Positions 28,474 through 49,551 of a DNA stretch of 64,000 nt are shown in pieces. The stretch covers positions 1 to 64,000 of IMG/VR virus record IMGVR_UViG_3300050343_000122; one strand, 5' to 3'. The translations under genes and the position numbers were made by a program. The number at the start of each line of letters is the position of its first letter. Within the stretch, counting starts at the first letter, position 1. The notes under the pieces are model-generated. The model saw only the letters and a list, made by a program, of their open reading frames with translations, ran no database searches and was not told the DNA's origin. The stretch is from a virus.

Positions 28474-31400
28474 TTATATATCACAAGCACCTATTAGTGT
28501 GGCTGATGGTCCTAGATCACCAGGTGTATTAGTATTTGCACAAATGAAACTAGTCTGACCTGTTGCAACAGATACAACTTGTTCTATTCCACTACAGTCT
28601 GTATACCTTATTGCTATTGGTCCAGTAATTTCCCACTTAGAACAATTAGGTTGTATACTTGTAGTAGTAGTTGTTGTTGGAGCAAGTGTAGTACTAGTTG
28701 TTGTGGTTGTTGGTCCTGCACTTGGACTAACGCATGATGTAAGTTGAGTTATATTTGTTGGACTAAAGTAGTTTTCGATCTTTCCTTTACCACTAGTAGC
28801 TCCTTCTAGAACTACTTCAAATGGAGAGAAAGGTGCCACAGAAAACTGAGCATATGGGTAAACAGGAGTATTTCCTTTACATACAATTATAATGTCACAG
28901 TCACACGAATGGATTGTTATATCCACTCCACTAAATTCACTACTAGTAATAGTAGAAACTATCTCTGGAGTTACTACTTGGTTATCATAATCCCACTGAA
29001 CATATTCAAATGCTCCTGTTGCTATTACTTCTCTAATTGTTATTAGTTTACCTTCAGTTGTGTATAATAAATTAGTAGGGTATGTGTAACCAGTTTGTAA
29101 AAGAATTTTCGATGATGGGATTCCACTTGTTGTATCTATTTCTACTATAAATCCTTGAGCTGTATCTATTGCAAGAATTGCACTGTCATCTTTAACTACC
29201 ACTCCAGCAGTTGTACCAAATGCATTATCAGCGATTACTAAATCTGAATCTGCTACTACAGTCCATGGGCTTGTTGTAATTGTCCATTTCTTAAATGAAG
29301 TATTAATACCTGGTGAAACTGCGTATAGAGCAGTTGGGCCAACAGCTAACTTACCAGACGTATAGCCAGGAATATTTATATAGGCATAGTTAACCCAATC
29401 TTGTTCTACATTTTGAAGAACTACATTACCATCATCATCATTATAAATAAGTCCACAACATTGATCTAGATCTCCATTAAACATAGTAGTTGTAGTAGTT
29501 AATGTATTACAATCACATGGTACTTGTTCTAACAATATTCCATCTTCAACATAATTAGCAGTTTGATAAGAGTTTATATCTACACTAGTATACCAACCAT
29601 CAGGAACTTTTGTACAAGAATCATCATCACCAAAATAAAGAACTTGTCCTATAGATACGTTAGCACCATTAACATCTGCTCCTGAATATTCGAACGTGAA
29701 GTTTATAGGTACAGCCTCATCATTACTATTTAGATTTGCTAAAAATGCTCCTATAGCACAAGCACTTGCTGCACTTGATGATCCTATAATAGGAGCAGGT
29801 TCAGTCATAATCTGATAACCTTCTGTAAAAGTAGATTGTGAAAGAGGTGAAGGTCTAGAACAAATTGTTGTAGTAGTAGGACTAGGAACAGTAATATATC
29901 CTACACCATCTATGTCACAATTTATTTCTTCTAATATTGATATATCAAGATCACAATCAGGAACATATCCTGTAGTAGTTGTAGTAGTAAATAAAGGATC
30001 AGATGAAGTTGTGGTAGTAGTTGTTCTAATTTCTTCAGGTTCTACCTCTCCAAACCATCCATCCAGATATGGAGTCTCTTCCCCTATTTCAGATCTATCA
30101 GGAGTTTCTAACACTGCTGTAAATTGTGTACAACAGTTATTTATACCAGAATAGTAAAAGTTGTTTTCACCAATGTAGAAATTAGGTAGATAGGAATGAA
30201 AAGATATCCAACTTCTAGTACTAAAGTCAAAAGACATAGTCCAAGATTTGTTACAGAAATACTCTCTATCAAATAAGTATACTTCTTGTTCTTGTTCTGT
30301 TTCTCCTACCGTTACATAAAACTTCTTATTTACAGAATCATACCTTACATCATCGTTAACAGGAATATAGTCTAACTTAGTAATAATTACTCTATCAAAC
30401 CTATTATCATATACACCGTGTAACCCAATGCCATTAAAATGGTTGTCTGTATAAACATCTGGGAAGTATTCTAGAATCTCAAAAGGTAAATGACTTGTCA
30501 TAAATCTATTTACACCTGATCCAAACTTAGTCATGTCTATAACTTTTGACCCAGCCATTAAGAATATCTGACCTCTTTTTGCATCTGCAGTAACTGCTCC
30601 GTATGGAACTTTTAGTAAGAACTTATTTTGAGAACCTACATATCCCAAATCTGTCTCTGCAAAATCTATAGGAGGTGCTCCATCAAACAATCTAGGATTA
30701 CCTATATATGCTGCTTGAGGATTACTGGTATCAATAGTTAGTAACTTGTTATATAGCAAAGCTTTATTTTCAAACCTTGCCAATACAGCCTTATCCATCA
30801 TTCCATCTAAAGATGTTAGATTACCGTAGTTTTGTGGGAAGTCATGGTAAGAAAGAGCTCTATATACTAACCAGTTGTTTACTCTATTATCTGCACTGTC
30901 CCCTTGTGTATCTGAATAAATTGCTCTGAATGGAAAGAATGTATAACATTCAGCTATCCAATCTGGAGGCAGTTGACTAAACACATTTTCTTTGTTCTGT
31001 TTAGAGAATGTTACATTATAGTAATACGTATTATCTTGAGCAATTGGTACATTTGTTTCTTGTAACCAGTCATCAGGAATACCTGAACTTACATGAGGCC
31101 AGAAGTCTCCTTCTTTTGTATTAAATGCTTGCCTTAAGTCTGTATTATATACACTCTCACAATAGAAATTAGGAACACCATATGCCCATAGATACATATA
31201 TCCATCATAAAATGATCTATATGTTCCTGCATAAGACTCTTGATCATTAGGAGGTGGACCAATTAAAGAAGGATCGCTAGGACAATCAAGATTATGTGCT
31301 TTAGTTGATATAAGATTGTACATTAACTGATCAGGGTCGCCTGATGTTACATTATAAGGTTCTAAGATAGATCTTGCCGAATGCCAGTATTTAGGATAAG

Positions 31401-34400
31401 CAACATTACCTAACTCATCAAAGAATATATCTGAATCATCTGGTGCTTGCACTCTATTATCTATAAAGAATGGTAGTTTAGTTTTGAATGTAAATCTAGA
31501 TATAAATATATCTCCACCAAATATTGTATCTGTCCCTGAAGCTGTAACAAGTTTTTGATAACCAGTGTCAATTCTTTGAAATGAGTTTAATTGACCCCAT
31601 TGATTAGGAAGAATATTCTTCATAGAAGCATAGTATGATACTACTTTTATATCTTGCTCTTGTCCTGGTTTGTCACAAACTCCAGACTCCCCTATGCTAA
31701 ATCTTGAGTATTCTACCATACTAGATTCACCGTCTGCTCCAATTAAACTTTCAGTATTTTGAGGTAAAGGAAGTGCTAAAATATCATCACTAATAGTAGT
31801 ATTAATATATACAGAAGATTCTCTATTCCAATTATTAATTGGAGGTTGGCTATTATTAAAAGATTGTACACCTGGTATAAGGTATCTTGTAAGTTCTATT
31901 TCTCTTTGTTTGATACCACCGTTCGTATTATTATTGATAGGAAAATGATAATCATAGTTTGCTCTTGAGTTGAAAGACATTGCATAATTCTTTCTTGTAA
32001 TACCATTTATGTATATAGTAAGATAGGATTGGTATACTGTAAACATTATACCAGCATTAAATACACCTGAACCCATAGAAGCCACTCTCTCAGAACTTTT
32101 TAACGCATCTTCTTGAGCTTCTTTACTTAGAAGTTTGTACTTAGCATTGTCTTTAACTTCTACAAAGTGAGCCTTTCCTGCTCCAAACATTACACTTTCT
32201 AACTTAAGTACGCTTCCTAAGAATGGTTGTCCAAAAGATGTGTCTGGTGAATTGAAGATTTGCTTATCTAGAATATCTTTTGCTTCTTCATAGTCAGCCC
32301 CATCTAATGGTTTAATAGGTATATCTCTGTCACATTTTAAACAGGATCTTCTACTATGTCTTTTAGAGAATTCATTATTTTGTCCTCCAGAACCAGTATC
32401 ATTTGCATTTTCAGCTGGAGTAAAAGTATCCCAAGCATTTACTGGAGTTGGAAATCCAGGTCCGCTATAAGCAGCACTCGAAGCAACACTATCATCAAAA
32501 AGAGGAAGAGGATTAGTAGGTTGTCCAAATCCAGGACTTGGCCAAGGTTGTACATTGTCTGGATTTTCTTCTACTTTAACACATGTCTGACATGCTTTTG
32601 ATTCCTGATCAGGATCCGGACATGGGTAATTAGGATCAAAGGTATTTGGAGGATATGATATTATGTCATAGTTTTCTTCTGGATTATCAGGATCTGGTTC
32701 AGTACAAGGTCCTGGATAAATTTGAGTTAGAAAAATACGAGGATTTGAACAGCAACTACCAGAAGGTTCACGCCAAGTAGGTGCATAGGGGTGATTTCCT
32801 TCATATCCATAACTTGCTCCAGCTGGTGCTCCTCCAGGACTTTCATCAAAATCAATTTGGTTTGTACCATAAACATCAAATTCAGGGTCAGCATTTGTAA
32901 TCACATTAACTCTGTCAATACCGTCAATAATATCACCACCCCACCTCAGAGTAGCAGAACAATTTACTGTTCCATCAAAATTAAAATTGTTAAATGGATT
33001 TTGCCATTTTAATTCATATCTACTACAAGGGCCTTTATCACTAAAAGGTACAGGAAAAATCTGACAGTTGGAGCTATGGTCACCAATCCATACATCAAAG
33101 TCTCCAGGTCCTATTGTTATAACACCTTTCAGAGATACAGGTCTTGTTAAGGAACAAACTTCTAAAATACAATTAGGTGAAATAGTGGCTTGTGTTTGTT
33201 TACCATTTTCAATACTAGTATATACAAATACTCCATCTTCATCATTTACAGTTATATCTATACCATATGCAGTATACCAAGGTCCAAGAAAAAAATCTGT
33301 AGCCTTATCAGGCATATATAAAAGCCATGACTTAGATTTATAATTCCAAGCATTGTTATTCTCTTGTAGGAACGAGTCCTCTCCAGATACTTGATTATAT
33401 GGGTAGTTAGGGTAGTAGTATTCTTGATCATCTTTTGTATACTTGTTTAAATTTCTAAGAATACCTTTTGCTATTACTGATTTGTTTGTACCACGGTCCC
33501 CTCTTACTATTTTAAATGCTACAATATCATCTTTCTGTTCTTGAGTAAGATTAGAAGCTGTTATTAGTCCTGTTATTTGAGTATTGTTAATCTTAACTCC
33601 TATAGGATAGATAGCATCAGAGTCTTGCATCGTGGGTACAATACTAGTACCTTCATAAACAATCTGTGGATTTTCTACAATAGGACTTACTAATACATCT
33701 GGAAACTTATGATGTCGTATAGGTGTATCTGCAAGGCTTCCCCACAACTCAGTATTACATGGATACTTTTCAGTAGATTCCCAGTATGCAAAGTTTCCGT
33801 ATTCAAAAGGTCCTTTATAATTAGCTTCTCCATTATACTCAGGTGAAAATCCTAAGTTTGTAGCATTGTTATATATCTTCCAATAAGGACTATAACCAAT
33901 ACCACTTTCAAAGTAATCAGGTTCTCCAATAAAGTCATCATTGGTATTAGGAACATCCGGTTGAGGGTTTAGATTAAGTGGGCCTGGTATGTGAAATGAG
34001 TCTGTCTGTTTTCCATTTCGTAAAAGAAATACTATTTCAAATGCATACACTTCATCACGCATGTATCCACGATAATTAGTAGCATTCAATTCATCACTGT
34101 AGTCTTCTCCAGGTGGGAGTCTATGTGTTTCCCATTGTAATGTTATTTGACTAGCAATATTCTGATAATTAATTCTATCTACAGAAGCTAAGTCACTCCA
34201 TATCAGCGTGTCTTGTGCAGAAGTTATATCCTTGGCTACATCATAATATGGATACTTCTCAAAAATATCTGCAATAGATAATTGTATAGGATTTGCATCT
34301 GCACCAGTGTATGTAATTATCTGTTGATCTTCAGTAATGTTATATGTACCTACTAACTCTACAGAGGTTATATCATTAATAGTTTTTATTACTGCTAAAT

Positions 34401-35259
34401 TGAAGTAGTTATATTGTCCTGATAAGTCCAGGTTTGATACTCTTAGTTCTATTGATTTACCTACTGGATAGTTAAAGTTTACTGTTGTGTTTAACGGATC
34501 AGCAATAGGTGTAGGGTTAGTAACTGAATAGTAAGAAGTAAGATCGCTACCAGCTGCATCTGAATACTGTACAGCAAATTGATATGTTCCAGCAACCAGT
34601 GAGCCTACGTTTAGTATATCGTTTATTTCTAAAAAAGGTATGTCGAAATTAGGTTGTATCTTAAGTTGATTACAATCCAATTGATCAGTATATACAGGAT
34701 CACATCCAGGGTCTGAGTTAGGATCAATAACATATGGAATGTTATCTATATCTAAATATCTCCTAGCATTAAATCCATCTGTCCAGTATATCTCTGTACT
34801 GCAATTTGTTATTCTATGCACTACTTTATGTATAGGATAATCTATACTAAAGTTTAAACAAGGAGCATTTACTAATGTTTGATATTGACAATCATTATTA
34901 AACATGAAGCCAATTTCACTATCACCAGTTAAAGGATCTGTTAGAAAGAATATGTTTTTCTTTTTCTCTGGAATTGTATATTTTCCAATGAGTTCGTACC
35001 CATCAGGAAAACTTAAACAAGGCTCATTACCAGGTTCATTTTGATAGTTGACTGAACTAGAATCAAAGTTCTCTATAGTAGCATTCAATGCATAGGTAAG
35101 ACTTCCTGTCTTTACTTGATTGATGGTGCTATCCATGTTAAGACCAGTAGTAGCTTGATTATATTCAAGTCTAACTTGGCCTTTCTGAGCTTTGTCATCT
35201 TTTTTAGCAGCAGCAGCTTTTTTAGCTTTTGCGTCTTCCATTTCTTTTCTAGTAGCCAT
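28474..35259 (-). CDS. Tail stabilization/muzzle protein (P22 gp10-like) with internal insertion and Thr-linked C-terminal extension
   Basis: 2261 aa. GLNMD..LTYALNA N-terminus, GYMRDEVYAFEIVF, FGGDIFISRF, GVYDNRFDRVIITK and SWISFHSY; follows the ring and IHF-like genes. Confidence 0.8.
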   Translation of the reverse strand: MATRKEMEDAKAKKAAAAKKDDKAQKGQVRLEYNQATTGLNMDSTINQVKTGSLTYALNATIENFDSSSVNYQNEPGNEPCLSFPDGYELIGKYTIPEKKKNIFFLTDPLTGDSEIGFMFNNDCQYQTLVNAPCLNFSIDYPIHKVVHRITNCSTEIYWTDGFNARRYLDIDNIPYVIDPNSDPGCDPVYTDQLDCNQLKIQPNFDIPFLEINDILNVGSLVAGTYQFAVQYSDAAGSDLTSYYSVTNPTPIADPLNTTVNFNYPVGKSIELRVSNLDLSGQYNYFNLAVIKTINDITSVELVGTYNITEDQQIITYTGADANPIQLSIADIFEKYPYYDVAKDITSAQDTLIWSDLASVDRINYQNIASQITLQWETHRLPPGEDYSDELNATNYRGYMRDEVYAFEIVFLLRNGKQTDSFHIPGPLNLNPQPDVPNTNDDFIGEPDYFESGIGYSPYWKIYNNATNLGFSPEYNGEANYKGPFEYGNFAYWESTEKYPCNTELWGSLADTPIRHHKFPDVLVSPIVENPQIVYEGTSIVPTMQDSDAIYPIGVKINNTQITGLITASNLTQEQKDDIVAFKIVRGDRGTNKSVIAKGILRNLNKYTKDDQEYYYPNYPYNQVSGEDSFLQENNNAWNYKSKSWLLYMPDKATDFFLGPWYTAYGIDITVNDEDGVFVYTSIENGKQTQATISPNCILEVCSLTRPVSLKGVITIGPGDFDVWIGDHSSNCQIFPVPFSDKGPCSRYELKWQNPFNNFNFDGTVNCSATLRWGGDIIDGIDRVNVITNADPEFDVYGTNQIDFDESPGGAPAGASYGYEGNHPYAPTWREPSGSCCSNPRIFLTQIYPGPCTEPDPDNPEENYDIISYPPNTFDPNYPCPDPDQESKACQTCVKVEENPDNVQPWPSPGFGQPTNPLPLFDDSVASSAAYSGPGFPTPVNAWDTFTPAENANDTGSGGQNNEFSKRHSRRSCLKCDRDIPIKPLDGADYEEAKDILDKQIFNSPDTSFGQPFLGSVLKLESVMFGAGKAHFVEVKDNAKYKLLSKEAQEDALKSSERVASMGSGVFNAGIMFTVYQSYLTIYINGITRKNYAMSFNSRANYDYHFPINNNTNGGIKQREIELTRYLIPGVQSFNNSQPPINNWNRESSVYINTTISDDILALPLPQNTESLIGADGESSMVEYSRFSIGESGVCDKPGQEQDIKVVSYYASMKNILPNQWGQLNSFQRIDTGYQKLVTASGTDTIFGGDIFISRFTFKTKLPFFIDNRVQAPDDSDIFFDELGNVAYPKYWHSARSILEPYNVTSGDPDQLMYNLISTKAHNLDCPSDPSLIGPPPNDQESYAGTYRSFYDGYMYLWAYGVPNFYCESVYNTDLRQAFNTKEGDFWPHVSSGIPDDWLQETNVPIAQDNTYYYNVTFSKQNKENVFSQLPPDWIAECYTFFPFRAIYSDTQGDSADNRVNNWLVYRALSYHDFPQNYGNLTSLDGMMDKAVLARFENKALLYNKLLTIDTSNPQAAYIGNPRLFDGAPPIDFAETDLGYVGSQNKFLLKVPYGAVTADAKRGQIFLMAGSKVIDMTKFGSGVNRFMTSHLPFEILEYFPDVYTDNHFNGIGLHGVYDNRFDRVIITKLDYIPVNDDVRYDSVNKKFYVTVGETEQEQEVYLFDREYFCNKSWTMSFDFSTRSWISFHSYLPNFYIGENNFYYSGINNCCTQFTAVLETPDRSEIGEETPYLDGWFGEVEPEEIRTTTTTTSSDPLFTTTTTTGYVPDCDLDISILEEINCDIDGVGYITVPSPTTTTICSRPSPLSQSTFTEGYQIMTEPAPIIGSSSAASACAIGAFLANLNSNDEAVPINFTFEYSGADVNGANVSIGQVLYFGDDDSCTKVPDGWYTSVDINSYQTANYVEDGILLEQVPCDCNTLTTTTTMFNGDLDQCCGLIYNDDDGNVVLQNVEQDWVNYAYINIPGYTSGKLAVGPTALYAVSPGINTSFKKWTITTSPWTVVADSDLVIADNAFGTTAGVVVKDDSAILAIDTAQGFIVEIDTTSGIPSSKILLQTGYTYPTNLLYTTEGKLITIREVIATGAFEYVQWDYDNQVVTPEIVSTITSSEFSGVDITIHSCDCDIIIVCKGNTPVYPYAQFSVAPFSPFEVVLEGATSGKGKIENYFSPTNITQLTSCVSPSAGPTTTTTSTTLAPTTTTTTSIQPNCSKWEITGPIAIRYTDCSGIEQVVSVATGQTSFICANTNTPGDLGPSATLIGACDI

Positions 35260-35269
35260 ATGCTATTTG

Positions 35270-36286
35270 TTAACTCCTACCGTTACCTCTCCACAAACCA
35301 TATCCATATCTGTTTGAATATCTTCCTGACACTTGAGATTTTGCATCAGGTAATTCATACATATTATTACGATTGAGATCAGTAATAACTCTTCTTTGTT
35401 TTTGATATACTGTTTCTTTCTTAAGTTCTGTTTCTGCCATAATCCAAGACTCATCAGACATTTGTTTATAATAAACTAGTTTTTGTTGTAGCTGATTAAA
35501 TGTTTCATCATTTGTCTGATTTGTTAGAGTTTCAAATACCTTAAACTTAATAAACGATTCTATATATTCTCTTACACGATAATTATCTGGAATCAATTGA
35601 TTTCCTATCTTGTCATAGTCTGTAGAATAGAATACTAAATGAACTACTCCTTTTCTAAAGTTAGTAACAAACTTATTGTCTCTTACATCAAAAGAATCGT
35701 AAGAAGAAGATCCTGGAGTGAACTCACGTCCTGATAAAGCTAACTGATTGTATTGGTCCCAAGAATCTGTATATGCTAAATTACAGCTCTTTCTAGCTGA
35801 GATGTTACCTGGTTTAAGTAGGTATGTTCTTCTATATGCTCTAGGTATTTCACTGTTTGTTTTATATACAGCTTGTACTATCTCAGGCATACATGTCCCA
35901 TCGCAACTAGGATGTTGACAATCAGGATTATTACAGGGAGTACCACCAATAGTTAAAGGAGCAATTTGAATAGTTGTAGCATTTGCAGCCTGACTATAAA
36001 AAGAAGATGCTGCAGGATAAGGGTTTCCTGGAATAACTGCACACATCCAAGCTTCTCTCACAGCATGAAAGTTGTCTGGTAACCTTGCTTCAAAGTCTTC
36101 TATAAATAGAGCCTCTGTAGTAATCTTATATGTTGTTCTTCCCATTTTCCTAAGACACTTATCTAAGTATGTAGGAAATAGTAAATCATCTACAGCACCA
36201 GTATCGAAGTAACTTTTAAGCTCTTCTTTTACTGTAGCGTATAGTGGTTCTGGGGATACAAAATCGTATTTATAATAGTATGACAT
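35270..36286 (-). CDS. Putative tail/neck ring protein
   Basis: 338 aa with LPDNF, FVTNFRKGVVHLVFYS and LIPDN motifs; immediately upstream of the muzzle gene, as in crAss-like phages. Confidence 0.65.
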   Translation of the reverse strand: MSYYYKYDFVSPEPLYATVKEELKSYFDTGAVDDLLFPTYLDKCLRKMGRTTYKITTEALFIEDFEARLPDNFHAVREAWMCAVIPGNPYPAASSFYSQAANATTIQIAPLTIGGTPCNNPDCQHPSCDGTCMPEIVQAVYKTNSEIPRAYRRTYLLKPGNISARKSCNLAYTDSWDQYNQLALSGREFTPGSSSYDSFDVRDNKFVTNFRKGVVHLVFYSTDYDKIGNQLIPDNYRVREYIESFIKFKVFETLTNQTNDETFNQLQQKLVYYKQMSDESWIMAETELKKETVYQKQRRVITDLNRNNMYELPDAKSQVSGRYSNRYGYGLWRGNGRS

Positions 36287-36289
36287 AAC

Positions 36290-36769
36290 TTATTTTTTCC
36301 ATTCGTGATAGGTCTGTTGATATTTAGGATCTGCTTTTATATAATGAGAAAGGTCTCTGGAAGTTCTTCTAGATGGTTTAAAATACCATAAGTCTGAGTT
36401 TCTAAATCTTGCTGTAGATTTAAACCACATCCAACCAAAAAAATAACCTTCTGTATGATAGTTAAAGTTATATACAACTTTTCCTTTCTTTCGTGTCTTC
36501 TGCCAATCAATAGGAAGATTTACAAACTCCTTTCCATTGATGTCTTTAGTTTTTCTTCTTTTCTTCTTATTAATCGAAAACTCTCCAAAACCAGTTGGAA
36601 GCTTTTCTTTCTCTCCTGTTTCTAAAATATAGTGTTTGAATGACTCATTGAAACCATACAGGATATTTCTCCACTCATCAAAAGTTAGAGATATTAAAGG
36701 GTGCTTCTTACAGAAGTCCTCGTAATTCTTTTTACTTGCACTTCGCCAGTCAACTGCTACTCTTGACAT
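36290..36769 (-). CDS. IHF/HU-like DNA-binding protein (crAss-like)
   Basis: Basic protein with LPTGFGEFSINKKK, IDWQKT and WYFKPSR motifs. The start is moved to the ATG at 36769 to avoid overlap with the upstream gene. Confidence 0.65.
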   Translation of the reverse strand: MSRVAVDWRSASKKNYEDFCKKHPLISLTFDEWRNILYGFNESFKHYILETGEKEKLPTGFGEFSINKKKRRKTKDINGKEFVNLPIDWQKTRKKGKVVYNFNYHTEGYFFGWMWFKSTARFRNSDLWYFKPSRRTSRDLSHYIKADPKYQQTYHEWKK

Positions 36770-36779
36770 ATATAATTTA

Positions 36780-37508
36780 TTACTGAGTTGGTTGGGCATT
36801 TGGAGCTTGTCCATCTATGCCTTCGTTACTCATGTCGGTTTTAATTTGGAAGTATGTAGCTAAGAGTTTTTGTGATACTAATCCTAAAGCTGAAGACTCT
36901 AAATAACCTGGTAGAGCATACTCTTTATCCAAAGGGTTTTTACAATATTCTTCATCTGTAACATCCACACCACCACAATCACAATCTGGATACATAATTT
37001 CACTAGGTACATCTTCTTCAAAAAATGCAGATAGTCTGATTGCTTTTAGTAAAGGATTGTTTACATATAAGTATCCATTAGATATCCAGAAGTAATAATC
37101 ATTTTTTACTATTGGTAGTTTCAATAAATTCAAATATCTATTTATAGTTATCTCCTTTAATTTAGTTCCTCTTCCTCCCATAGCATCTACAGAATATACA
37201 CCCTGTATTACATATTGGTAGTTACCTTCCGATATTCTAGGTAGTTTATGTGCAGTTCTGGATACATTACACTCGTCTGCATACTCACAACATTCTGAGA
37301 TGGGAACTTCTTTCATCTCTAGACAAGGAATAGTGGTATATAATGTATCACTAGCCCATAGTTTTCTTAAATTGGTTTCTCTTTTTATCAACATTTGAGA
37401 TGTGTTTCTTATCTCAGAAGCAATAACTCTATCCGTTATCAAAGCATCTGTTGATAAAATCTTATGTGTACCTCTCACATCCGAAACCAATTTTCTTAAT
37501 GTTGCCAT
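36780..37508 (-). CDS. Putative tail tubular/ring protein
   Basis: 242 aa with YFWISNGYLYV..AIRLSAFFEED and C-terminal EYALPGYL; conserved position before the IHF-like gene. Confidence 0.65.
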   Translation of the reverse strand: MATLRKLVSDVRGTHKILSTDALITDRVIASEIRNTSQMLIKRETNLRKLWASDTLYTTIPCLEMKEVPISECCEYADECNVSRTAHKLPRISEGNYQYVIQGVYSVDAMGGRGTKLKEITINRYLNLLKLPIVKNDYYFWISNGYLYVNNPLLKAIRLSAFFEEDVPSEIMYPDCDCGGVDVTDEEYCKNPLDKEYALPGYLESSALGLVSQKLLATYFQIKTDMSNEGIDGQAPNAQPTQ

Positions 37509-37512
37509 TGTT

Positions 37513-37653
37513 TTATTTTTTATAATTACCGAAGCCTTTTATTCCTCCCTCTTGGTCAGCCTCTCTCATATAATTCTTTTTCATATTATAAGGACGCACC
37601 TTGGGAGCTTTTACATTCTTGCCTGGTGTAGGCTTTCCATACTTTGTTGCCAT
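37513..37653 (-). CDS. Small basic hypothetical protein (46 aa, absent from the ORF track)
   Basis: ATG at 37653 to TAA at 37513 gives MATKYGKPTPGKNVKAPKVRPYNMKKNYMREADQEGGIKGFGNYKK, which fills the gap between its neighbours. Confidence 0.6.
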   Translation of the reverse strand: MATKYGKPTPGKNVKAPKVRPYNMKKNYMREADQEGGIKGFGNYKK

Positions 37654-37655
37654 AA

Positions 37656-38897: not shown

Positions 38898-38925
38898 ATG
38901 TATCGTATTTAATTAGAAAATATCT

Positions 38926-39000: not shown

Positions 39001-39003
39001 TAT

Positions 39004-39070: not shown

Positions 39071-39073
39071 ATT

Positions 39074-39739
39074 CTATCTCACATCACTTCCACAACATTC
39101 GTCATAGATCCATGAAAACTCAAAGTCATCTCCAGACGATCCTACCCACTGAAGATCTTCAATAAAACATGGGTTTACTAATGTATTCCCTGATATCTCG
39201 TAGTTGCGTATTGATAATGTACCTTGATTACCGTTTCCATTATTTTGTGTGTTTATCATTTGTACAGTGTTTCTTAGAGTTATTATATCTGGATCAAAAA
39301 AGAACAACTGCATGTTGCTCAAGGGACAAAGAAAGTCTGGTTCAGTTATCACTAACGGTGTATTGCTAGCAACAAATATCGATCCCACTTGAGCATTTTG
39401 ATTTAGATCTAAATTCCCTATTAAGCTCCCATTTAGAAATACATCAAAATTGTCATCTCTTTCTGAGTTCTCATTACAAACCTGAAAGACAGTGACAGTA
39501 TTTGGACAATTTGGAGGTGCGTCTATTTCTCTATCTAGATAAGTATCACAGTCAGGACTAGTAGATATAATTCTAACTACAGCAGTTCCAAAAGGAACGT
39601 TATATGAAACAAATCCTGCAAGTAGTTGATTGCTTGTTACATCTACTTCAAAAGCTTCAGTAAAACCATCAACCTGAGAAAACAAGTTAAAAGGTCCAGC
39701 ATCTGCTCCTATGTTACTAGCTTGTATTAGTATTGCCAT
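39074..39739 (-). CDS. GPF-domain protein with beta-rich C-terminal domain
   Basis: 221 aa. N-terminal GADAGPFNLFSQVDGF...VPFGTAVVRIISTSPDC. Confidence 0.7.
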   Translation of the reverse strand: MAILIQASNIGADAGPFNLFSQVDGFTEAFEVDVTSNQLLAGFVSYNVPFGTAVVRIISTSPDCDTYLDREIDAPPNCPNTVTVFQVCNENSERDDNFDVFLNGSLIGNLDLNQNAQVGSIFVASNTPLVITEPDFLCPLSNMQLFFFDPDIITLRNTVQMINTQNNGNGNQGTLSIRNYEISGNTLVNPCFIEDLQWVGSSGDDFEFSWIYDECCGSDVR

Positions 39740-39753
39740 TTTATATTTTTATT

Positions 39754-40293
39754 TTATTGACAAAGAGTAGTACAACATAAAACTTCATATCCATTTAAAG
39801 CTATCTGTATTGCTGCTACACTTGTGTCAGTTGCACTCGGTCCTATTTTATACCATCCTGCATCCAATTCTAATAGACTTGCTGTTGCTGGGTTTGGATC
39901 ATCATATAAAAAAGACCCAACAGATGGAACATAATTAAAAGTATCACCATTGTGCCAGTACTCAGTTACCGGTAATATAGATGCATCTGAACATGCATCT
40001 GTAGCATTATTGTGAGGTGCTGGAGCATCAAAAAGTCCAAATCCAGATGTATATTGTGAGACAATTGATGCGTCAACATAATTATCACAGTCAGCATTGT
40101 TATTTTTTATTCTCACAATGGTAGTTCCACTAGGAACAAGACTTGTAGATATGTTATAACCTAGTGCACTTGTTAGAATAGTTATAGAAACGTTCGTAGC
40201 AAAGGGTGTTGTATAAAGATCTGCATTTGAATATAGATCAACTGGTCCTGAGCAACTGCCTGCGGATTCTAGTTTTATTGTTAGTGTTGCCAT
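39754..40293 (-). CDS. GPF-domain protein with C-terminal 'AC..GWY..C' module
   Basis: 179 aa. N-terminal AGSCSGPVDLYSNAD...VPSGTTIVRIKNNNADC. Confidence 0.7.
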   Translation of the reverse strand: MATLTIKLESAGSCSGPVDLYSNADLYTTPFATNVSITILTSALGYNISTSLVPSGTTIVRIKNNNADCDNYVDASIVSQYTSGFGLFDAPAPHNNATDACSDASILPVTEYWHNGDTFNYVPSVGSFLYDDPNPATASLLELDAGWYKIGPSATDTSVAAIQIALNGYEVLCCTTLCQ

Positions 40294-40307
40294 TTTATAA
40301 TTTTATT

Positions 40308-41450
40308 TTATGGATCTGGACAATCCTCAATGTTAGTAATACGTCCATTTGTATCAATTTTTATAAGCCAAGTTCCTGGATCAGCTGTAGATATAGACAT
40401 TTGAAACTTGTACCATTTGTTGTCTCCGTTAAATGTTTGAAGTGCTGGAAATATTACATCATATGTAAAATCATTTATTTGTGGTTCAGCAAGTGATCCA
40501 TTTTTCCATAGGAATGCAGCAAGGTCAGCATTACATAAACCAATATTTAGATTTGAACTACTAGTTATTGATCTTATACCAGCTGCAAGAGATGCACTAG
40601 GTGTTGTACTAGTAGTTGTCGTAATTGGAGTTTTAGTTGTTGTAGTACCAGTAAGTGTTACGGTAGGATTATTTAAGGAACAATCACATGTAGTAGTAGT
40701 TGTTGTTGTTGAAGAAGAGCTGGTACTAGTTGTAGTGCTAGTAGAACTAGTAGAACTAGTAGTTGTTGTTGTAACTTCTTTATAAGTATCAGCTATAAAG
40801 GAGAAGTCTACATCAACTCCTGCTCCAGTATAATTAGGACTTAGGGCACTTACAAAACTATCAGTACAGAAAGTACACACATCCTGTCCTTGATATAGTA
40901 TTCCGTCTTTTTGAATTGTATTGATAAAATTGTAAACTCCGACTCTGTTACTATCTATTGTAGCAGAAACTACATCTCCTGGTAAGATTTGAATAGTTCC
41001 ACTTTGTGAAGATGCATTACCTGTAATAGTTGCATCTACAACATTAGTTCCATTAACATCTATTTTTAAGTTACTGCTCTGTGGATCTGCCGCAATTAGA
41101 GAACTTGGAGTGTTTGTTATCAACTCCCAATTAAATCTATTAGGTGGTTGATCTGTTGTAGTGGTTGATGTTGATGTTGAAGTACTTGTAGTAGTTGATG
41201 TACTAGAACTACTTGTTGTAGTTGTTGTAGGACAATTAGTTGGTAGGTCAATACAATTATCACATGTACCAACAGAGCAGACTCTTATAATAGTTGCTCC
41301 TGTAGGAAGTTCAATAACATATCCATTAGTTAAAGTTAAAGCAGGAACTTGTGTTTGAAATGGATTAGTATATCCATCTGCATCTGAGTATAAATCAAAA
41401 GGTCCAGCAGAGCCTCCTGGGGGTATGGTTATGTTTATTTGTATCAACAT
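40308..41450 (-). CDS. GPF-domain, Thr-linker multi-module protein
   Basis: 380 aa. GGSAGPFDLYSDADGY...LPTGATIIRVCSVGTC, then three Thr/Ser tracts separating two modules. Confidence 0.75.
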   Translation of the reverse strand: MLIQINITIPPGGSAGPFDLYSDADGYTNPFQTQVPALTLTNGYVIELPTGATIIRVCSVGTCDNCIDLPTNCPTTTTTSSSSTSTTTSTSTSTSTTTTDQPPNRFNWELITNTPSSLIAADPQSSNLKIDVNGTNVVDATITGNASSQSGTIQILPGDVVSATIDSNRVGVYNFINTIQKDGILYQGQDVCTFCTDSFVSALSPNYTGAGVDVDFSFIADTYKEVTTTTTSSTSSTSTTTSTSSSSTTTTTTTCDCSLNNPTVTLTGTTTTKTPITTTTSTTPSASLAAGIRSITSSSNLNIGLCNADLAAFLWKNGSLAEPQINDFTYDVIFPALQTFNGDNKWYKFQMSISTADPGTWLIKIDTNGRITNIEDCPDP

Positions 41451-41453
41451 ATC

Positions 41454-41705
41454 TTATGGTGTTGGTGTTGTTGTGGTAGTTGTAGTTTGTTCTAATACAA
41501 TATCAAAACTATTTTCACATAATGAATCTGACGTTACTCTTATTATAGTAGTAAAATCAGGAACTACAGTACTAGTATAGCCAGCTAATAAATTAACTTT
41601 AGTTACACCAGTTTCAAAAGCAGCAGTGAACCCATCTACATCTGAGAACAGATCGAAGGGTCCAGTATTGTTTCCTGCAGTTGTTAGTTTAATAAATGCT
41701 TCCAT
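41454..41705 (-). CDS. Stand-alone GPF domain with poly-Thr tail (83 aa)
   Basis: Likely start MEAFIKL at 41705 (TAATG overlap with the upstream gene). AGNNTGPFDLFSDVDGF...IRVTSDSLC, ending TTTTTTTPTP. Confidence 0.7.
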   Translation of the reverse strand: MEAFIKLTTAGNNTGPFDLFSDVDGFTAAFETGVTKVNLLAGYTSTVVPDFTTIIRVTSDSLCENSFDIVLEQTTTTTTTPTP

Positions 41706-42016
41706 TATGATCCGCAACAAGTATTTAGTGTGTTATTTATATTTATAACTTGCTCTTTTATAGCAGAAATATCTGATGTATTAGTTGCTTGTTGAGTCTT
41801 CAATATACAAAGAAGTTCGTCAATTTTAGACAAAGCAACGTTTAAATCATCACAAGGTTCTACATTAGAACAAGGTAATATTGGTCCATTGTATGTAATA
41901 GATTTTGAATAATGTATTCCAGTTTGACATGGATCATTACTTACAGAAGTAGAACAACCACAAGTAGTGTTCACTGCTATATTTGTACAACAAGGATTAG
42001 TGGGTAAGTATGCCAT
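41705..42016 (-). CDS. Small Cys-rich coiled-coil protein, fibre-associated
   Basis: 103 aa. The ITYNGPILPC..VEPCDDLNVALSKID module is shared with 8..403 and 42028..43164. Confidence 0.65.
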   Translation of the reverse strand: MAYLPTNPCCTNIAVNTTCGCSTSVSNDPCQTGIHYSKSITYNGPILPCSNVEPCDDLNVALSKIDELLCILKTQQATNTSDISAIKEQVININNTLNTCCGS

Positions 42017-42027
42017 TGTTTTTAGTA

Positions 42028-43164: not shown

Positions 43165-43188
43165 AATTTTATTTATTTGTTTATCACA

Positions 43189-46100
43189 CTATGGTGATGT
43201 TTGTGTTACGCTTAGAGAAATAGCACCTGTTCCTGTTACAAAAAAGTTTCCAGCTACTGGACCTATTAATGTTTCAGCAGCTCCAGTATCGGTATCAGTA
43301 AAACTAGTAAATCCACTAACTTGAAGACCACTTGCTGTTAAAGTGCAGTTTTGTCCTGGGTTACTTGATTTATAAGTTGCTTGTAGATCATAATTCTTTC
43401 CGTTTACTAAAGTAAAGTTGTAAGTTCCATTACTGTTTGGATCAGCAGGATAACTCTCTGAAACATTACCGTCTTCACCATCAAAAGATACAAACTGAAC
43501 TCCGTCTCCAGGATCTTCAAAGTCTATTATAAGGCTTGCAGGTGCAGTTGCAGTAGTAATAGTATCATAAAGCCAAACACTATTACTTACACCTGTTTGA
43601 GTCCAGTTGGGAAAGACAAATGTATAGTCACTAGATGCAGATACAAGACTTGTATCGAATTGCGTTGGTTGAACACTAGTGGTTAGTTTGTGTTCAACAA
43701 AAGTAGTATCGCTTGATAAATTTTCAGTTGTCATTGATGCACTAATAACGTCACCTACTGCTGTCATTATAACACCACCGTCTGATGAATTAGTTGTGTT
43801 TATATTAGAATTTACAACTGTTGTACCATTAATTACTATCTTAAGATTCGCACTCCTAAATAGACTTGATCCACTTGGGTTAGAGTCTCCAGTAAACACC
43901 CAATTCCATGCATACGATTTAGGATCAGGAGTTGTACTTGTAGTAGTTGTACTACTTGTACTTGTTGTTGTAGAAGTACTTGTAGAAGTACTTGTGGACG
44001 TACTAGTAGTACTTGTACTTGTGGATGTACTTGTACTTGTGCTTGTGCTAGTAGAACTACTTGTAGTAGTGGTAGTAGGCACAGGAGTAGTAGTTGTTGT
44101 TGTTGTAGGTATAGGTGTGGTAGTACTAGTAGTTGTACTAGAAGTGCTAGTAGAACTACTTGTAGTAGTAGTGGTTGATCCACAATCTCCATATGCAGTA
44201 ACTTTATAACCATCTCCAGTTGTATGATCAAAGGTAGAAAGTATTGATGATAAGTCATTACCATTTGCATCTATCTTTGAAAATTGGAATGCACTTGTAC
44301 CTGATAACGGACCTGAAGCAGCGTTAGTGCTAACTTTACCATAAGGAACAGTAACTGCTCCAACTCCAACATCAAGAAGTTGATACACTGCTGTATAGTC
44401 TACTCCTCCTATATTAAATACTACATCATAGTTGGTATTTGGAACTTGAGACCAGTTGGTATAACTTGTTGTGTTTGTAGTTGGTCCAACGAAAGATGAT
44501 CGAACATATAGAGAGGGGGTATTCACACCTACAGGACTTGGTGGGTCTGTATACCAGAAGTTATTATCTGTAGTAGTTAAATAGTCAAACTCTAGACATC
44601 CAACTAGTGGTGTAATAGTTGTTGTTGTAGTTGTAGTACTAGAAGTGCTCGTAGAAGTGCTAGTGGACGTGCTAGTAGATGTACTAGTTGAACTACTTGT
44701 TGTAGTAGTAGTTGGTACAGGGGTAGTAGTACTAGTAGTTGTACTAGAAGTACTTGTACTGGTACTGGTACTGGTACTTGTACTAGACGAACTTGTTGTA
44801 GTTGTTGTTAGCTGATCATCTGGACATAAATAAAAATCAAGAAGGCAACCTGCTAACTTATCTCCTACATGTGTAAATATTAGTTCATTAATTCTATCAC
44901 CATTGTTTCTAGGAAATATATTAAATAAAGCACGAGCTGGTTGATCTCCTGAATTCAACTTTGCTTTAAATATCACACTACCATCTGTCTCATTAGAAAC
45001 TATAAAACTATCAGGATTTTCTCTACATACCTGTATAAATGATATATTAAGATCTACGTCAGATGTTACTCTCACTGTTTCATATATTCCTGGATTAGGA
45101 TAATACCCTATACCAGTACAGTAAAATGCCATAGATGATATTGAGTTATCAAATGACATTGTAGATGAAGCACACTTTCCACCACCTAGAGCATATGTAC
45201 CCTGATTATTATATTGATTATTGTGGAAACCTTGTAGTTCACAATCTGGATCAGTTCCATTATTTGCAAGAAGTTGCGAAGAAGAACTTGGAACATATGT
45301 TGTCTCACAATCAGCGTTATCAGATGATAATGTCAGTACAAATCCATTACTTAATGTTTTAACTCCATTTCCAGTGCTTATTCCTGGGAATCCCTCTGGA
45401 GCATCAAAGTTATAAGGTTGGCTACAGTTACCTGAAATAGGAGCTGAACTAGTGGTGGTGGTGGTGGTTTCAGAACCACAGTTATTTTCTAAACTACCTG
45501 TAAATCCTACTTGCCAGTACGCTTCACTTTCACAATATATTATTTTCTGGTCACTTTGTCCATCTATAGTTATATACTCAATTGTATCTGGATCTACTAG
45601 TGGACCAGGAGTAACAAACTGCTGTATACCCATTTGTTCTGCAACCATATCTATTCTACAGGCATAACCATATAGATAACAACCAGCTGCCACCTGAGCT
45701 CCACCAGCATAACATAGTCCTATTATCTTGATAGTTCCCTCTATATCTGCGAGGAGGAGTGATCCTGAATCTCCTGAATATATAGGATTACAACAATATT
45801 CTGTTGTACTCGCATTATCAGGATCTTCTTGAGGAGGTTTAATAAATCTAATAGCATCAGTAAACTTACAATTTACACTAGTTGCTTGTGAACTAGGATA
45901 AGCTATATTTTCAAGCGTAGCATTTATTGATTGAATTAACATAGGACAATCTGGTACAATACCTTTAGGTCCAGTAGTTCTTCCAGTACTATATACACGA
46001 GGGTTTGTAGCTAATATATTATCTATTTCTAATGTAGAAGCAAACGGTGGTGGATTACTACCTAGTATAGACTCTAGTCCTACTTGATTCCATGCAATTG

Positions 46101-46779
46101 TTGGATCCCATCTTGTCGGATCAATGGAAATTATAGCTGCATCTACCTGATTAAATAAACCTGTAGACTTTGCATGAATAGGAACATACTGTAAACTTAC
46201 ACCACAGTTATAACTTGCAGGTGTGGATGCACTTCCAAATTCTCCTTGTTGGTATACATAATCTACTGGACTATATTCATTTACAAGAGCTCCAGTAACA
46301 CTTCTATCAGATGTATAAAATGCATCTTGAATAGTAACGTGATTATTTGTTAAACCAACTGAACAGCCTGTTTCTGAATGTATAACTACACCTCCAAGAG
46401 TACCTACACTAGTTCCATTATTTCTACTAGAAAAAGAAATACCACCTTGTAAATGTTGAAAGAACTGTCTGTTTGCTAGTGAAGTGTTATTTGTTTGTCC
46501 ACAAGTTGAAGAACACGTACCTATAATTTCATGCTTCGCTATTTCTATTACATCTGTTTTTATACTTTTTCCAGATACTATAACACGTGATGGAATATGT
46601 TCATTTATTGAAATCTCAGAAAGAGGCTTCTTTTTTTCTACAGCTATAACTATAGCAAAGTCACCTGTCCACGTTCCATTAACAACTTTTCTTCCCCAAG
46701 CAACACTAGTTACATTAGGAAGTTGCTGAGACAACTCTAATATTCTATCTTTTATTTCTTGTGTTAATAGTCCTTTCAT
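43189..46779 (-). CDS. Chymotrypsin-like (S1, Nal1-type) serine protease fused to Thr/Ser linkers and beta-sandwich modules
   Basis: GTLGG, LTNNHV (His 46339-46341), VDAAII (Asp 46141-46143) and GDSGS (Ser 45766-45768); N-terminal prodomain-like region; long Thr/Ser tracts. Confidence 0.85.
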   Translation of the reverse strand: MKGLLTQEIKDRILELSQQLPNVTSVAWGRKVVNGTWTGDFAIVIAVEKKKPLSEISINEHIPSRVIVSGKSIKTDVIEIAKHEIIGTCSSTCGQTNNTSLANRQFFQHLQGGISFSSRNNGTSVGTLGGVVIHSETGCSVGLTNNHVTIQDAFYTSDRSVTGALVNEYSPVDYVYQQGEFGSASTPASYNCGVSLQYVPIHAKSTGLFNQVDAAIISIDPTRWDPTIAWNQVGLESILGSNPPPFASTLEIDNILATNPRVYSTGRTTGPKGIVPDCPMLIQSINATLENIAYPSSQATSVNCKFTDAIRFIKPPQEDPDNASTTEYCCNPIYSGDSGSLLLADIEGTIKIIGLCYAGGAQVAAGCYLYGYACRIDMVAEQMGIQQFVTPGPLVDPDTIEYITIDGQSDQKIIYCESEAYWQVGFTGSLENNCGSETTTTTTSSAPISGNCSQPYNFDAPEGFPGISTGNGVKTLSNGFVLTLSSDNADCETTYVPSSSSQLLANNGTDPDCELQGFHNNQYNNQGTYALGGGKCASSTMSFDNSISSMAFYCTGIGYYPNPGIYETVRVTSDVDLNISFIQVCRENPDSFIVSNETDGSVIFKAKLNSGDQPARALFNIFPRNNGDRINELIFTHVGDKLAGCLLDFYLCPDDQLTTTTTSSSSTSTSTSTSTSTSSTTTSTTTPVPTTTTTSSSTSTSTSTSTSTSTSTSSTTTTTTTITPLVGCLEFDYLTTTDNNFWYTDPPSPVGVNTPSLYVRSSFVGPTTNTTSYTNWSQVPNTNYDVVFNIGGVDYTAVYQLLDVGVGAVTVPYGKVSTNAASGPLSGTSAFQFSKIDANGNDLSSILSTFDHTTGDGYKVTAYGDCGSTTTTTSSSTSTSSTTTSTTTPIPTTTTTTTPVPTTTTTSSSTSTSTSTSTSTSTSTTSTSTSTSTSTSTTTSTSSTTTTSTTPDPKSYAWNWVFTGDSNPSGSSLFRSANLKIVINGTTVVNSNINTTNSSDGGVIMTAVGDVISASMTTENLSSDTTFVEHKLTTSVQPTQFDTSLVSASSDYTFVFPNWTQTGVSNSVWLYDTITTATAPASLIIDFEDPGDGVQFVSFDGEDGNVSESYPADPNSNGTYNFTLVNGKNYDLQATYKSSNPGQNCTLTASGLQVSGFTSFTDTDTGAAETLIGPVAGNFFVTGTGAISLSVTQTSP
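43930..44176 (-). repeat. Low-complexity Thr/Ser-coding tract (ACT/ACA/AGT repeats)
   Basis: Encodes an ~80-residue T/S/P linker that is a near-duplicate of the 44610-44810 tract. Confidence 0.9.
44610..44810 (-). repeat. Low-complexity Thr/Ser-coding tract
   Basis: Encodes TTTTTSSSSTSTSTS...TTTPVPTTTTTSSSTSTS... Confidence 0.9.
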
Positions 46780-46788
46780 ATCTATGTG

Positions 46789-49551
46789 TTATGCTGGTTC
46801 TGACCCTGCACTGAATTTGGTAAATATTGTTCTTACACCAGGTATAGGTGTAGTAGTGGTAGTTGTTGTTGTTATATCAGGATCTGTTGTAGTAGTGGTA
46901 GTTGTACCAAGTACTGCAAATCCATCATTTGTTCTACATAATGGTAAACTTCCTGAACTTCCACCAAAGTATTCATCTTCGTTTGCTACTTCTTCCCAAA
47001 CATGTGTTTGTAGATTAACTCTATATAATCTAAATCCTCCTGTAGTAATACCTAAAGTTACATATAAATAATCATCAACTACAGCCATATCTCCACCACT
47101 GTTCCAATTACCAACTGGTCCTGGAATCTCTACTTCTAGATTACCTGTGTCATAATCAAACTGAGCAAGTACATATGGTTGAGTTCCATAATTAGATTTG
47201 ACTGCTATAAATTTATTTGGTGTTCCATCTTCTTTAAGGGTAACCACATGTTCACCAGAACCATTAAATGGTTCAGGTATAAAGAATTTAAGTGCAACTG
47301 CTAATGTTGTAGATCCATCTACAAATTCAGCTTCAATCACTTGTTGACCTCCTCCAGCAAAGGAAGAGATACCATACGATAGTACCATTAAGTTGTCATT
47401 AACCGTACTTACTCCAAAAAAAGTAGGAGGAAATATATTAGGTAACCCACTTTGATCTATAGTATAAAGTATACCCTCCCATGTAAAGTTTGAAGGTGTA
47501 CCACTTGGTAATGTGGTATCATAACTCCATCTTGTAAATTGTGTAATTCTATCTCCTTCTGCATTTTTATTGTTAACTTGACCAATAAAATAATTATTAG
47601 TAATATCTGAATTAGGTAGTTGGAAATAGCTACCTCCTGGAAGAGCAATTTCCTCTATAGTATTTGTTACAGTATTTTGTGAATAAACTCTACTATAGGT
47701 TCCATTCAAATTATCAGGAGCACATATTCCATCACTACATCTATATGCAACGTTACGAGTAAATATTCTTGAACAACTTAAAGGAGGGGTGACACAACCA
47801 AGCAGAATTGGTCCCCCAGTTGGTGCATTACCGGATATAGTTATAACAGTAAAGTTGGTAGGAGTTGTTACAATAAACTCTCCATCACCTTCTGTATTGT
47901 AATCTGGCACACCTCCACCTATTCTATTTCCTTGTACTTGTACATTACATCCATTACTTATTGATATAGAAGGTGTTCCTGTATTTGTAGTAATTTCATA
48001 AACGTCCCCAGCACTAAAGTCAGGAGAAGTGTTAAGTACAGCAGCTCTAATAGGAAGATTATTAATAGGACTTTCAAAAGTTAGAGTAATACTAAAATCA
48101 TTACCTTGAACAGTTGTTAACTTATTAGTTGCAGCTGGATTAGATAATCCACTACATCCGCTATTAGGTATACCTCCAACTGGATTTCCTGGTAGTAATG
48201 CTAAGAAGTTATCGTCAGCACTAGCTGTAACCTGAATTCCCTGATATGTAAAAGTAACAGGCCCAATATAGAAGAGGTTATTTTCAGCATCTCGTTCAGT
48301 TAGTGCAGGTATCCAAGTAGCCTCACAATCAGGATCTGTTAATTTAATACCAACATTTGCACAACCAGTTGATGTATGTATCCAAACACTATCGTCAGCC
48401 ACTGTAGTTTCTAATGTAGCATTATATGGTGCTGTTTGACTTATGTTATATACTTCAAGTGTTTCTGGTTGAATTACTTGTATTAATCCATTTACACCCC
48501 ATACAGGCATAGCTTTAGTTGAACCAGTCCATGTAGATGTAAATTCAGGAACACCAGAATTCTGTAAGTTGATTATAGGAGTGTTAGGATTTGGTGACCA
48601 ACTACCAGATGAAGGTAAGCCTGGATATTGTTTAATTCGATTTGAGGCATTGAAATCACTTTGGTCTTCATAATATCTACTAGAAAGAATAACATCACCA
48701 TCATTAGTAATAAACATACCTGTAAGCTCTGTTGTGTGTCCAAAGGTATTACCAAAGCTAACAGTGACTTGATCACTATTATTAAATTCAGTTAATTCAA
48801 TATCTCCAACTGTAGAAATGTCCCATTCGTAAACACCCATAGCAACATTTCCATTAAATCTATCGCTAAACCCTACAAGTAATGTTTTATTATCAGAGGT
48901 TGTAGCTATTGTAGATATTTTAGTTCCCCATATACTTTTGTAATTAAGTGAACTTACAGCAATCGTTATTTCTCTAACATAAGATAAAGTTGGTGCAGAA
49001 CCAGATAGAACTATGTCCCACTCTCTAATGTATGCCACTGTATTATCAGTTGTAACACTAGCCAACCATAACTTATCTTCTGTAGAGCAGATAGGTCTGT
49101 TGATTCCTACAGTAGTTGTAAAGTCATTAGGTACAAGCACAGGACTTGAAGAATTAGTATTAAAGTCATATACAGCTATTTCTCCAGGGTTACCTCCATA
49201 AGTTGACCATGTACATGGTGAGAATGCTGGATAATTAGTACTTGTTGTAGTACTTGTTGATGATGACGTGGTTGTTGTTGTTGTAACATCACAAAGAATA
49301 GATCCAGAAAAATCACAGTTTGGTGTAGCACAAGAATAAATATCTGTTGTATTAGGTGTACACAATGCACCCAAGTCCAACAGTCTAACAGTTATAGTTC
49401 CATCAGGGGCTAATGATGTTTCATACCCAGACAATAGATCCGCTTTACTCACACCTGTCTCAAATGGAGTAATAAACCCATCTACGTTCGAGTATAGATC
49501 AAAAGGACCTGTGTCTGCACCTGCAAAACTTAATGTTATTATTATTGTCAT
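46789..49551 (-). CDS. GPF-domain adhesin-like protein with two beta-propeller-like and one jelly-roll-like module
   Basis: 920 aa. N-terminal AGADTGPFDLYSNVDGF; Thr tracts near both ends; internally repeated beta-rich domains. Confidence 0.7.
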   Translation of the reverse strand: MTIIITLSFAGADTGPFDLYSNVDGFITPFETGVSKADLLSGYETSLAPDGTITVRLLDLGALCTPNTTDIYSCATPNCDFSGSILCDVTTTTTTSSSTSTTTSTNYPAFSPCTWSTYGGNPGEIAVYDFNTNSSSPVLVPNDFTTTVGINRPICSTEDKLWLASVTTDNTVAYIREWDIVLSGSAPTLSYVREITIAVSSLNYKSIWGTKISTIATTSDNKTLLVGFSDRFNGNVAMGVYEWDISTVGDIELTEFNNSDQVTVSFGNTFGHTTELTGMFITNDGDVILSSRYYEDQSDFNASNRIKQYPGLPSSGSWSPNPNTPIINLQNSGVPEFTSTWTGSTKAMPVWGVNGLIQVIQPETLEVYNISQTAPYNATLETTVADDSVWIHTSTGCANVGIKLTDPDCEATWIPALTERDAENNLFYIGPVTFTYQGIQVTASADDNFLALLPGNPVGGIPNSGCSGLSNPAATNKLTTVQGNDFSITLTFESPINNLPIRAAVLNTSPDFSAGDVYEITTNTGTPSISISNGCNVQVQGNRIGGGVPDYNTEGDGEFIVTTPTNFTVITISGNAPTGGPILLGCVTPPLSCSRIFTRNVAYRCSDGICAPDNLNGTYSRVYSQNTVTNTIEEIALPGGSYFQLPNSDITNNYFIGQVNNKNAEGDRITQFTRWSYDTTLPSGTPSNFTWEGILYTIDQSGLPNIFPPTFFGVSTVNDNLMVLSYGISSFAGGGQQVIEAEFVDGSTTLAVALKFFIPEPFNGSGEHVVTLKEDGTPNKFIAVKSNYGTQPYVLAQFDYDTGNLEVEIPGPVGNWNSGGDMAVVDDYLYVTLGITTGGFRLYRVNLQTHVWEEVANEDEYFGGSSGSLPLCRTNDGFAVLGTTTTTTTDPDITTTTTTTTPIPGVRTIFTKFSAGSEPA

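Follow-up and report, generated by a model that had tools for sequence, protein, structure and literature searches.

How do appendage proteins change between strains when their parts belong to no named family? The 64,000-nucleotide stretch considered here (positions 1 to 64,000 of the IMG/VR virus record IMGVR_UViG_3300050343_000122, hereafter the window) belongs to a crAss-like phage record of 113.5 kb, complete and bounded by direct terminal repeats. Between positions 28474 and 51315 it holds a block of genes, all on the minus strand, coding for tail-region proteins of beta-rich modules, which are split into segments by threonine/serine (Thr/Ser) linkers. In the original prediction, made from the sequence alone, this block was described as a building-block repertoire of receptor- or glycan-binding domains, diversified by recombination. 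Comparison with natural relatives shows that the modules are indeed units of exchange, which have been inserted, deleted, replaced and moved between carriers. The building-block repertoire and its diversification by recombination were thus recovered, and one of the four module kinships on which the prediction was built found no alignment support.

The modules are found on four types of carrier: an N-terminal domain (Nt), a cysteine (Cys)-rich domain (N50), a trypsin-like protease and the C-terminus of the muzzle protein. The block was compared with 39 IMG/VR loci (designated by L numbers) and with several hundred proteins from large collections, annotated with family hidden Markov models (HMMs). 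The clearest variation was observed in the protease gene, which is organized as follows (aa, amino acids):

45469..46779, minus strand: trypsin-like protease domain, aa 1-437, with four modules appended (phrog_20754, E 8.5e-12)
44809..45444, minus strand: module pM4 of the protease extension, aa 446-657, with copies of ~30% identity on N50 carriers
44617..44808, minus strand: Thr/Ser linker 5' of pMid, recombination junction (L002/L003) and insertion site (L004)
44179..44616, minus strand: module pMid of the protease extension, aa 722-867 (146 aa), the swapped slot
43930..44178, minus strand: Thr/Ser linker 3' of pMid, recombination junction where the homology of L002/L003 and L017 restarts
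43549..43926, minus strand: module M1 of the protease extension, aa 952-1077, found by BLASTP and HMM with the M1 of o40308
43192..43554, minus strand: terminal module pC of the protease extension, aa 1076-1196, the C-terminus of extended proteases in relatives (29-88% identity)

The window and the loci L002 and L003 are collinear at 95-96% DNA identity, except for window positions 44178-44672. Both relatives have, in place of pMid, a cassette akin to C39, the C-terminal module of o39074; the L002 cassette shares just 54% identity with each of the C39 orthologues. The homology stops at 44673 and restarts at 44177 (L002) or 44144 (L003), both ends lying in Thr/Ser linker DNA. In L001 and L004, 353 extra bases are present within the linker 44617-44712 (at 44638-44697 in L004), and L028 differs from L023 by a 581-base insertion of pMid, again within linkers. 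L017 differs from the window at 43966-44611 with flanks of 85.7% versus 94.9% identity, a mosaic pattern. Cassette swap, insertion and deletion were observed between genomes that are 94-98% identical in DNA. As the linkers, taken with a 12-nt margin, represent ~7% of the block, the location of six out of six junctions (three independent events) in linkers is far from chance. Exact matches between different linkers are 16-26 nt long (most 16-21 nt, the longest 26 nt), and linker DNA has a 3-nt periodicity, consisting mainly of ACA, ACT and AGT codons.

The architectures of the relatives are not invariant: the gene order is kept and the module content varies from slot to slot. The following variants were recorded (x and y, further segments):

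Protease extension: none; M1-pC; M1-M1-pC; pMid-M1-pC; pMid-M1-M1-pC; pM4-pMid-M1-pC (window); pM4-C39-M1-pC; pM4-x-pMid-M1-pC; pM4-y-M1-pC
Propeller-sandwich-propeller payload: on Nt in the clade of the window, on N50 in L022-L036
pM4 slot: within the first propeller of the o46789 homologues in L008-L016
Third and fourth Nt genes: payload present or absent
Muzzle extension: one to three modules

The protease domain stands alone (~440 aa) in L005-L016, L030 and L039. Movement between carriers is illustrated by pMid, found at 69-78% identity on three unrelated ones (protease, N50 and Nt), and by a 77-residue mini-module of L004, which has copies of 86-91% identity on N50 carriers. No relative of pMid was found in bacterial and archaeal genomes in a search for a host origin. 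The original prediction had also set aside a diversity-generating retroelement. In agreement with this, no RVT_1 match was detected in the complete 113.5-kb record (control genomes being positive), and the lack of a reverse transcriptase in the complete genome excludes such a system.

The first carrier domain, Nt, has ~70 residues and heads o46789, o41454, o40308, o39754, o39074 and, more weakly, o27605. Six copies are present in the complete genome, every one inside the window (BLASTP E 1e-8 to 1e-17):

41229-41450, 49324-49551, 41487-41705, 40060-40293, 39515-39739 and 28256-28471, minus strand: Nt domains (BLASTP)

AlphaFold2 (AF2) predicts Nt as a small beta-sandwich (pLDDT ~90), with a possible resemblance to the type 9 secretion C-terminal domain. 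The payloads that follow it are unrelated to each other: M1-M2, M2, C39 or propeller-sandwich-propeller. In o27605 (288 aa, just after the muzzle gene; Nt at 28256-28471), a divergent Nt, 27% identical to that of o46789 (profile independent E-value 1.6e-7), is followed by 212 residues of unassigned kind. A protein encoded at 41454-41720 (minus strand) consists of Nt and a short poly-Thr tail, without payload; such bare Nt proteins (76-94 aa) number one in the window and up to three in relatives (L005-L016, L039), and they might represent blank plugs, partners in assembly or remnants. The adjacent Nt genes o39074 and o39754 share a 34-nt AT-rich repeat, 91% identical (39727-39760 and 40281-40314), which covers the start codon and upstream region of both. 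The repeat is possibly a promoter or ribosome-binding cassette common to both genes, and gene-level recombination could occur there as well.

A full HMMER scan of metagenomes placed Nt in more than 1000 clusters at 50% identity, nearly always at the N-terminus, in proteins of 78-1088 aa. A Thr/Ser linker was present in 149 of the 150 best representatives of the family, and the 191 payload segments of these proteins were grouped by BLAST into no fewer than 91 clusters; the only Pfam families detected in these 150 proteins were Fib_succ_major (3 proteins) and the DUF5122 propeller (1 protein). The best viral structure matches were proteins of the uncultured marine virus NIOZ-UU157.

The second carrier domain, N50, heads either a short multi-module protein or a large propeller fibre, according to the clade. 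In the window its gene is broken by two frameshifts. With the L004 homologue as query, the alignment runs in frame -2 (aa 1-329), frame -3 (aa 326-445) and again frame -2 (aa 446-581). The frameshifts account for the gap 49576-50329 devoid of open reading frames and could reflect either a sequencing error or a real disruption. The coordinates of N50, and those of the muzzle protein, are:

50971-51315, minus strand: N50 domain, o50329 aa 1-115, with about ten conserved Cys in 115 residues and no Pfam match
49579-51315, minus strand: N50-carrier gene with two frameshifts (tblastn of the intact 581-aa L004 homologue)
28474..35259, minus strand: muzzle protein, 2261 aa (PF25731 crAss_MUZ, E 2.1e-33)

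The PF25731 score, 116 bits for a cut-off of 27, identifies the latter as a Crassvirales muzzle. From ~aa 1764 onwards it bears a C-terminal extension of three Thr-linked modules (mzA, mzP3 and mzC), whose presence varies among relatives.

In the original prediction, four module types (M1 to M4) were each said to occur in several proteins of the block. Its module positions, converted to residue ranges, match the domain borders found here. The modules concerned, together with C39, are:

40773..41153, minus strand: M1 of o40308, aa 100-226, putative Ig/pilin-like beta-sandwich
40311..40586, minus strand: M2 of o40308, aa 289-380 (AF2 pLDDT 71-97; hhalign to o39754 M2, 83%)
39757..40011, minus strand: M2 of o39754, aa 95-179 (hhalign)
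29500..29865, minus strand: M2-like module of the muzzle, aa 1799-1920 (hhalign; conserved Cys at positions 2 and 117)
48352..49236, minus strand: propeller M3a of o46789, aa 106-400
46906..47775, minus strand: propeller M3b of o46789, aa 593-882
28711..29484, minus strand: beta-propeller-type module of the muzzle, aa 1926-2183 (hhalign to M3a and M3b)
47776..48351, minus strand: beta-sandwich M4 of o46789, aa 401-592 (AF2 all-beta, pLDDT 72-93)
39077..39514, minus strand: C39, C-terminal module of o39074, aa 76-221

Kinship was assessed by hhalign on deep profiles; with shallower profiles, made from the loci only, the M2 and M3 relations were overlooked or came out too weak. An internal control was provided by the 135 profile pairs, none of which exceeded 20% outside the predicted ones. 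The two copies of M1, on o40308 and in the protease extension, are 42% identical, and their relationship is clear (BLASTP E 1.2e-5, HMM independent E-value 1.5e-36). Paralogy of the M2 modules is probable, as judged from three pairwise hhalign probabilities over 49-85 columns: 83% between the o40308 and o39754 copies, and 88.6% (49 columns) and 65% (85 columns), respectively, between these and the muzzle module. In many relatives the M2 of o39754 is missing from the orthologue, which is then an Nt-only protein of 76-81 aa. Single-linkage clustering joined the M2-like modules to Nt, a grouping without hhalign support that was treated as a linkage artefact.

The beta-propeller M3 was confirmed by AF2 and hhalign as occurring twice in the 920-aa o46789 and once at the C-terminus of the muzzle. 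In o46789, AF2 (mean pLDDT 79) models the two propellers at aa 110-393 and 588-872. For the muzzle module, hhalign gives 97.6% with M3b (184 columns) and 96.7% with M3a (234 columns), and the HMM of this module finds o46789 aa 698-817 (independent E-value 8.7e-8); compared directly by hhalign, M3a and M3b do not match each other (<20%). Solved propellers can be superposed on the predicted M3 structure along the greater part of the domain; glutaminyl cyclase and members of GH32 and GH43 are among the top structure matches, and binding domains are resembled too. The proposed relationship between the M4 of o46789 and pM4 of the protease was not borne out by alignment, hhalign giving 7% and no match being obtained in local, low-MAC (maximum accuracy) or global modes. 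The two modules share the same three nearest ESM-Atlas clusters by protein language model (scores 0.91-0.93), which is a lead towards a common fold class and not a demonstration of it. Whole-model fold searches did not place M2 and M4, as the propellers in o46789, and Nt and M1 in o40308, account for most of the matches. The AF2 monomer models as a set consist of globular propellers and sandwiches, with no beta-helix. Scans of Pfam and PHROGs gave no name to any payload module or to Nt.

The presence of Cys at module ends, also predicted, was verified: they are conserved near both termini in 11 of the 14 payload families. In a 73-sequence alignment of o46789 homologues, the invariant C113 and C397 bracket M3a, C409 and C586 bracket M4, and C593 starts M3b. 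pMid has exactly two Cys, both conserved, at positions 7 and 145 of 146. From this conservation, the end Cys probably form a disulfide clasp joining the two ends of a module. In the o46789 homologues of L008-L016, ~200 residues of pM4 type (aa ~180-372) lie between segments matching M3a residues 2-68 and 67-295, which shows that modules can be placed inside other modules; a clasp holding the ends together would account for a module sitting in the loop of another.

The genes of the block are placed between the tail ring and muzzle genes and the tail-fibre-like gene o42028, which matches tail-fibre PHROGs. The ring genes are:

35270-36286, minus strand: crAss tail ring protein 1 (match at E 6.9e-8), directly upstream of the muzzle gene
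36780-37508, minus strand: crAss tail ring protein 2 (match at E 3.4e-20), also upstream of it

Among cultured phages, only the muzzle core finds relatives, the nearest being phages of Cellulophaga and Flavobacterium (~30% identity). GenBank phages gave no match to the block by megablast, nor to o46789 or Nt by tblastn. Together with the Tara source names of the homologues, the muzzle relatives suggest a marine crAss-like podovirus that probably infects Bacteroidota.

Taken as a whole, the best explanation, which we consider probable, is a set of appendage proteins with swappable modules. Each consists of a carrier followed by flexible Thr/Ser-rich linkers and small autonomous beta-rich modules. 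The carriers would fix the proteins to the virion, the modules would bind host surface structures and their swaps would alter adsorption specificity. Since the length and sequence of linkers are under little constraint, crossovers there would be tolerated, and the linkers would serve as recombination joints, like introns in exon shuffling. A stronger version, in which the linker tracts are selected joints whose in-frame, 3-nt-periodic microhomology would allow the insertion, deletion or movement of any Cys-clasped module among the four carriers, and even into the loops of other modules, is proposed tentatively and is the less probable of the two.

Several observations weigh against this explanation. 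Binding of receptors or glycans by the modules is suggested by fold resemblance and gene neighbourhood only, and propellers of the M3 kind are also enzymes, as their matches to GH32, GH43 and glutaminyl cyclase recall. The linkers may chiefly be glycosylation sites or spacers and not selected joints. Alignments tend to stop in low-complexity DNA, so that the precision of the junctions is possibly inflated, and in two replacements of the large fibre (L008-L016) the junctions fall at module borders without Thr/Ser linkers. A pMid tree labelled by carrier requires 5 changes, a number equalled in 34 of 200 trials with shuffled labels; this tree is too poorly resolved for transfers to be counted. 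Finally, no member of the GenBank phage collection carries Nt.

Other explanations were weighed against the same data. The proteins could be virion decorations that bind particles, mucus or algal polysaccharides, or enzymes degrading polysaccharides, their variation not being driven by host range. The globular Ig-like or propeller folds predicted by AF2, distinct from trimeric fibres or beta-helices, are compatible with this, as are a protease among the carriers and the existence of capsid fibres in PhiCrAss001 (PMC10172136). Such a role is conceivable because the structural likeness of the propellers extends to glycoside hydrolases (GH43, GH32) and other enzymes, besides binding domains. However, the genes sit among those of the tail rings, muzzle and tail fibre, the muzzle at the tail tip itself bears a fused module set and cassette turnover at strain level is the usual signature of adsorption proteins, so that we regard this explanation as unlikely. 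Somewhat less likely still is an old duplication followed by slow divergence in place, with linkers selected only as spacers or O-glycosylation sites and recombination incidental. The paralogues within the genome are old (M1 copies 42% identical, M2 and M3 detectable by profiles only), and the low identity of the L002 cassette to C39 orthologues (54%) points the same way; but cassettes are present, absent or replaced among ~95%-identical genomes and modules of 86-91% identity stand on different carriers, both of which require recent exchange.

The variation could also have been created by assemblers joining strains at repetitive linker DNA, all the relatives being metagenomic contigs with junctions in low-complexity repeats. 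Against this, the exact matches between linkers (at most 26 nt, mostly 16-21) are below the usual final assembly k-mers, the variants recur in independent samples (L002 and L003; L001 and L004; P0249, with 9 member sequences) and the swapped cassettes are in frame between flanks collinear at 95% identity. With exact repeats so short and each variant recurring independently, chimeric assembly is very improbable.

Swappable modules on shared carriers recall known systems. Mosaic proteins are familiar from cells, where carbohydrate-active and cellulosomal proteins, with their Thr/Pro/Ser-rich linkers, and exon-shuffled proteins combine autonomous, often disulfide-bonded modules in many architectures. 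Those proteins are cellular and secreted, whereas here a phage structural block is concerned and exchange takes place between near-identical genomes. Phages of Klebsiella and E. coli have receptor-binding proteins in which horizontally exchanged C-terminal specificity modules are borne by an N-terminal anchor (PMC8262889; PMC10408124). The block resembles these proteins by a conserved N-terminus on several proteins, unrelated C-termini and swaps between close relatives. They are trimeric beta-helix depolymerase tailspikes with short structured junctions, in contrast to the small Cys-bounded propellers and sandwiches found here, several per protein, on long Thr/Ser linkers and with a protease and a muzzle also serving as carriers. 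The receptor-binding protein of Staphylococcus phage phi11 (PDB 5efv) is only 8% identical in structural alignment, a fold match no better than that of many unrelated propellers.

The tail of PhiCrAss001 comprises the muzzle gp44, which terminates in a crass domain, ring proteins, tail hubs and the fibre gp22; fibres dock on the tail hubs by their N-termini, gp22 via residues 1-26 (PMC10172136). Muzzle and ring proteins 1 and 2 are homologous to those of the window, and both phages have their fibre genes in this region. The two phages differ in Nt, not found in the GenBank phage collection, which should include PhiCrAss001, and in the C-terminal muzzle extension, which has no counterpart in the published description of gp44. 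Short repeated sequences also act as recombination points in the PeSLs of T4-type phages, mobile regulatory cassettes that mediate modular shuffling (PMC2839356). PeSLs are intergenic promoter-terminator cassettes leading to gene-level swaps, while the joints described here are coding linker DNA within genes; the 34-nt repeat at two Nt genes may be a closer analogue. A text search, with incomplete coverage of the literature, found no paper linking threonine-rich linkers to recombination of phage fibres. The strategy, modular receptor-binding proteins with swapped parts, is thus familiar; the low-complexity linkers as joints, the Cys-bounded modules and the four carrier types are new.

Marine crAss-like phages are abundant and mostly uncultured, and Pfam has no families for the proteins of their appendages. 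The block makes visible the construction of such proteins and their strain-to-strain changes, with defined module borders, four carriers and natural swap variants. Questions of host recognition become testable in this way, and the parts of a genome that vary within populations could be better predicted. If the linkers act as recombination joints, they would offer a clear viral parallel to exon shuffling; if they are moreover selected for this function, they would form a plug-and-play adsorption toolkit extending across more than 1000 clusters of uncultured marine crAss-like phages.
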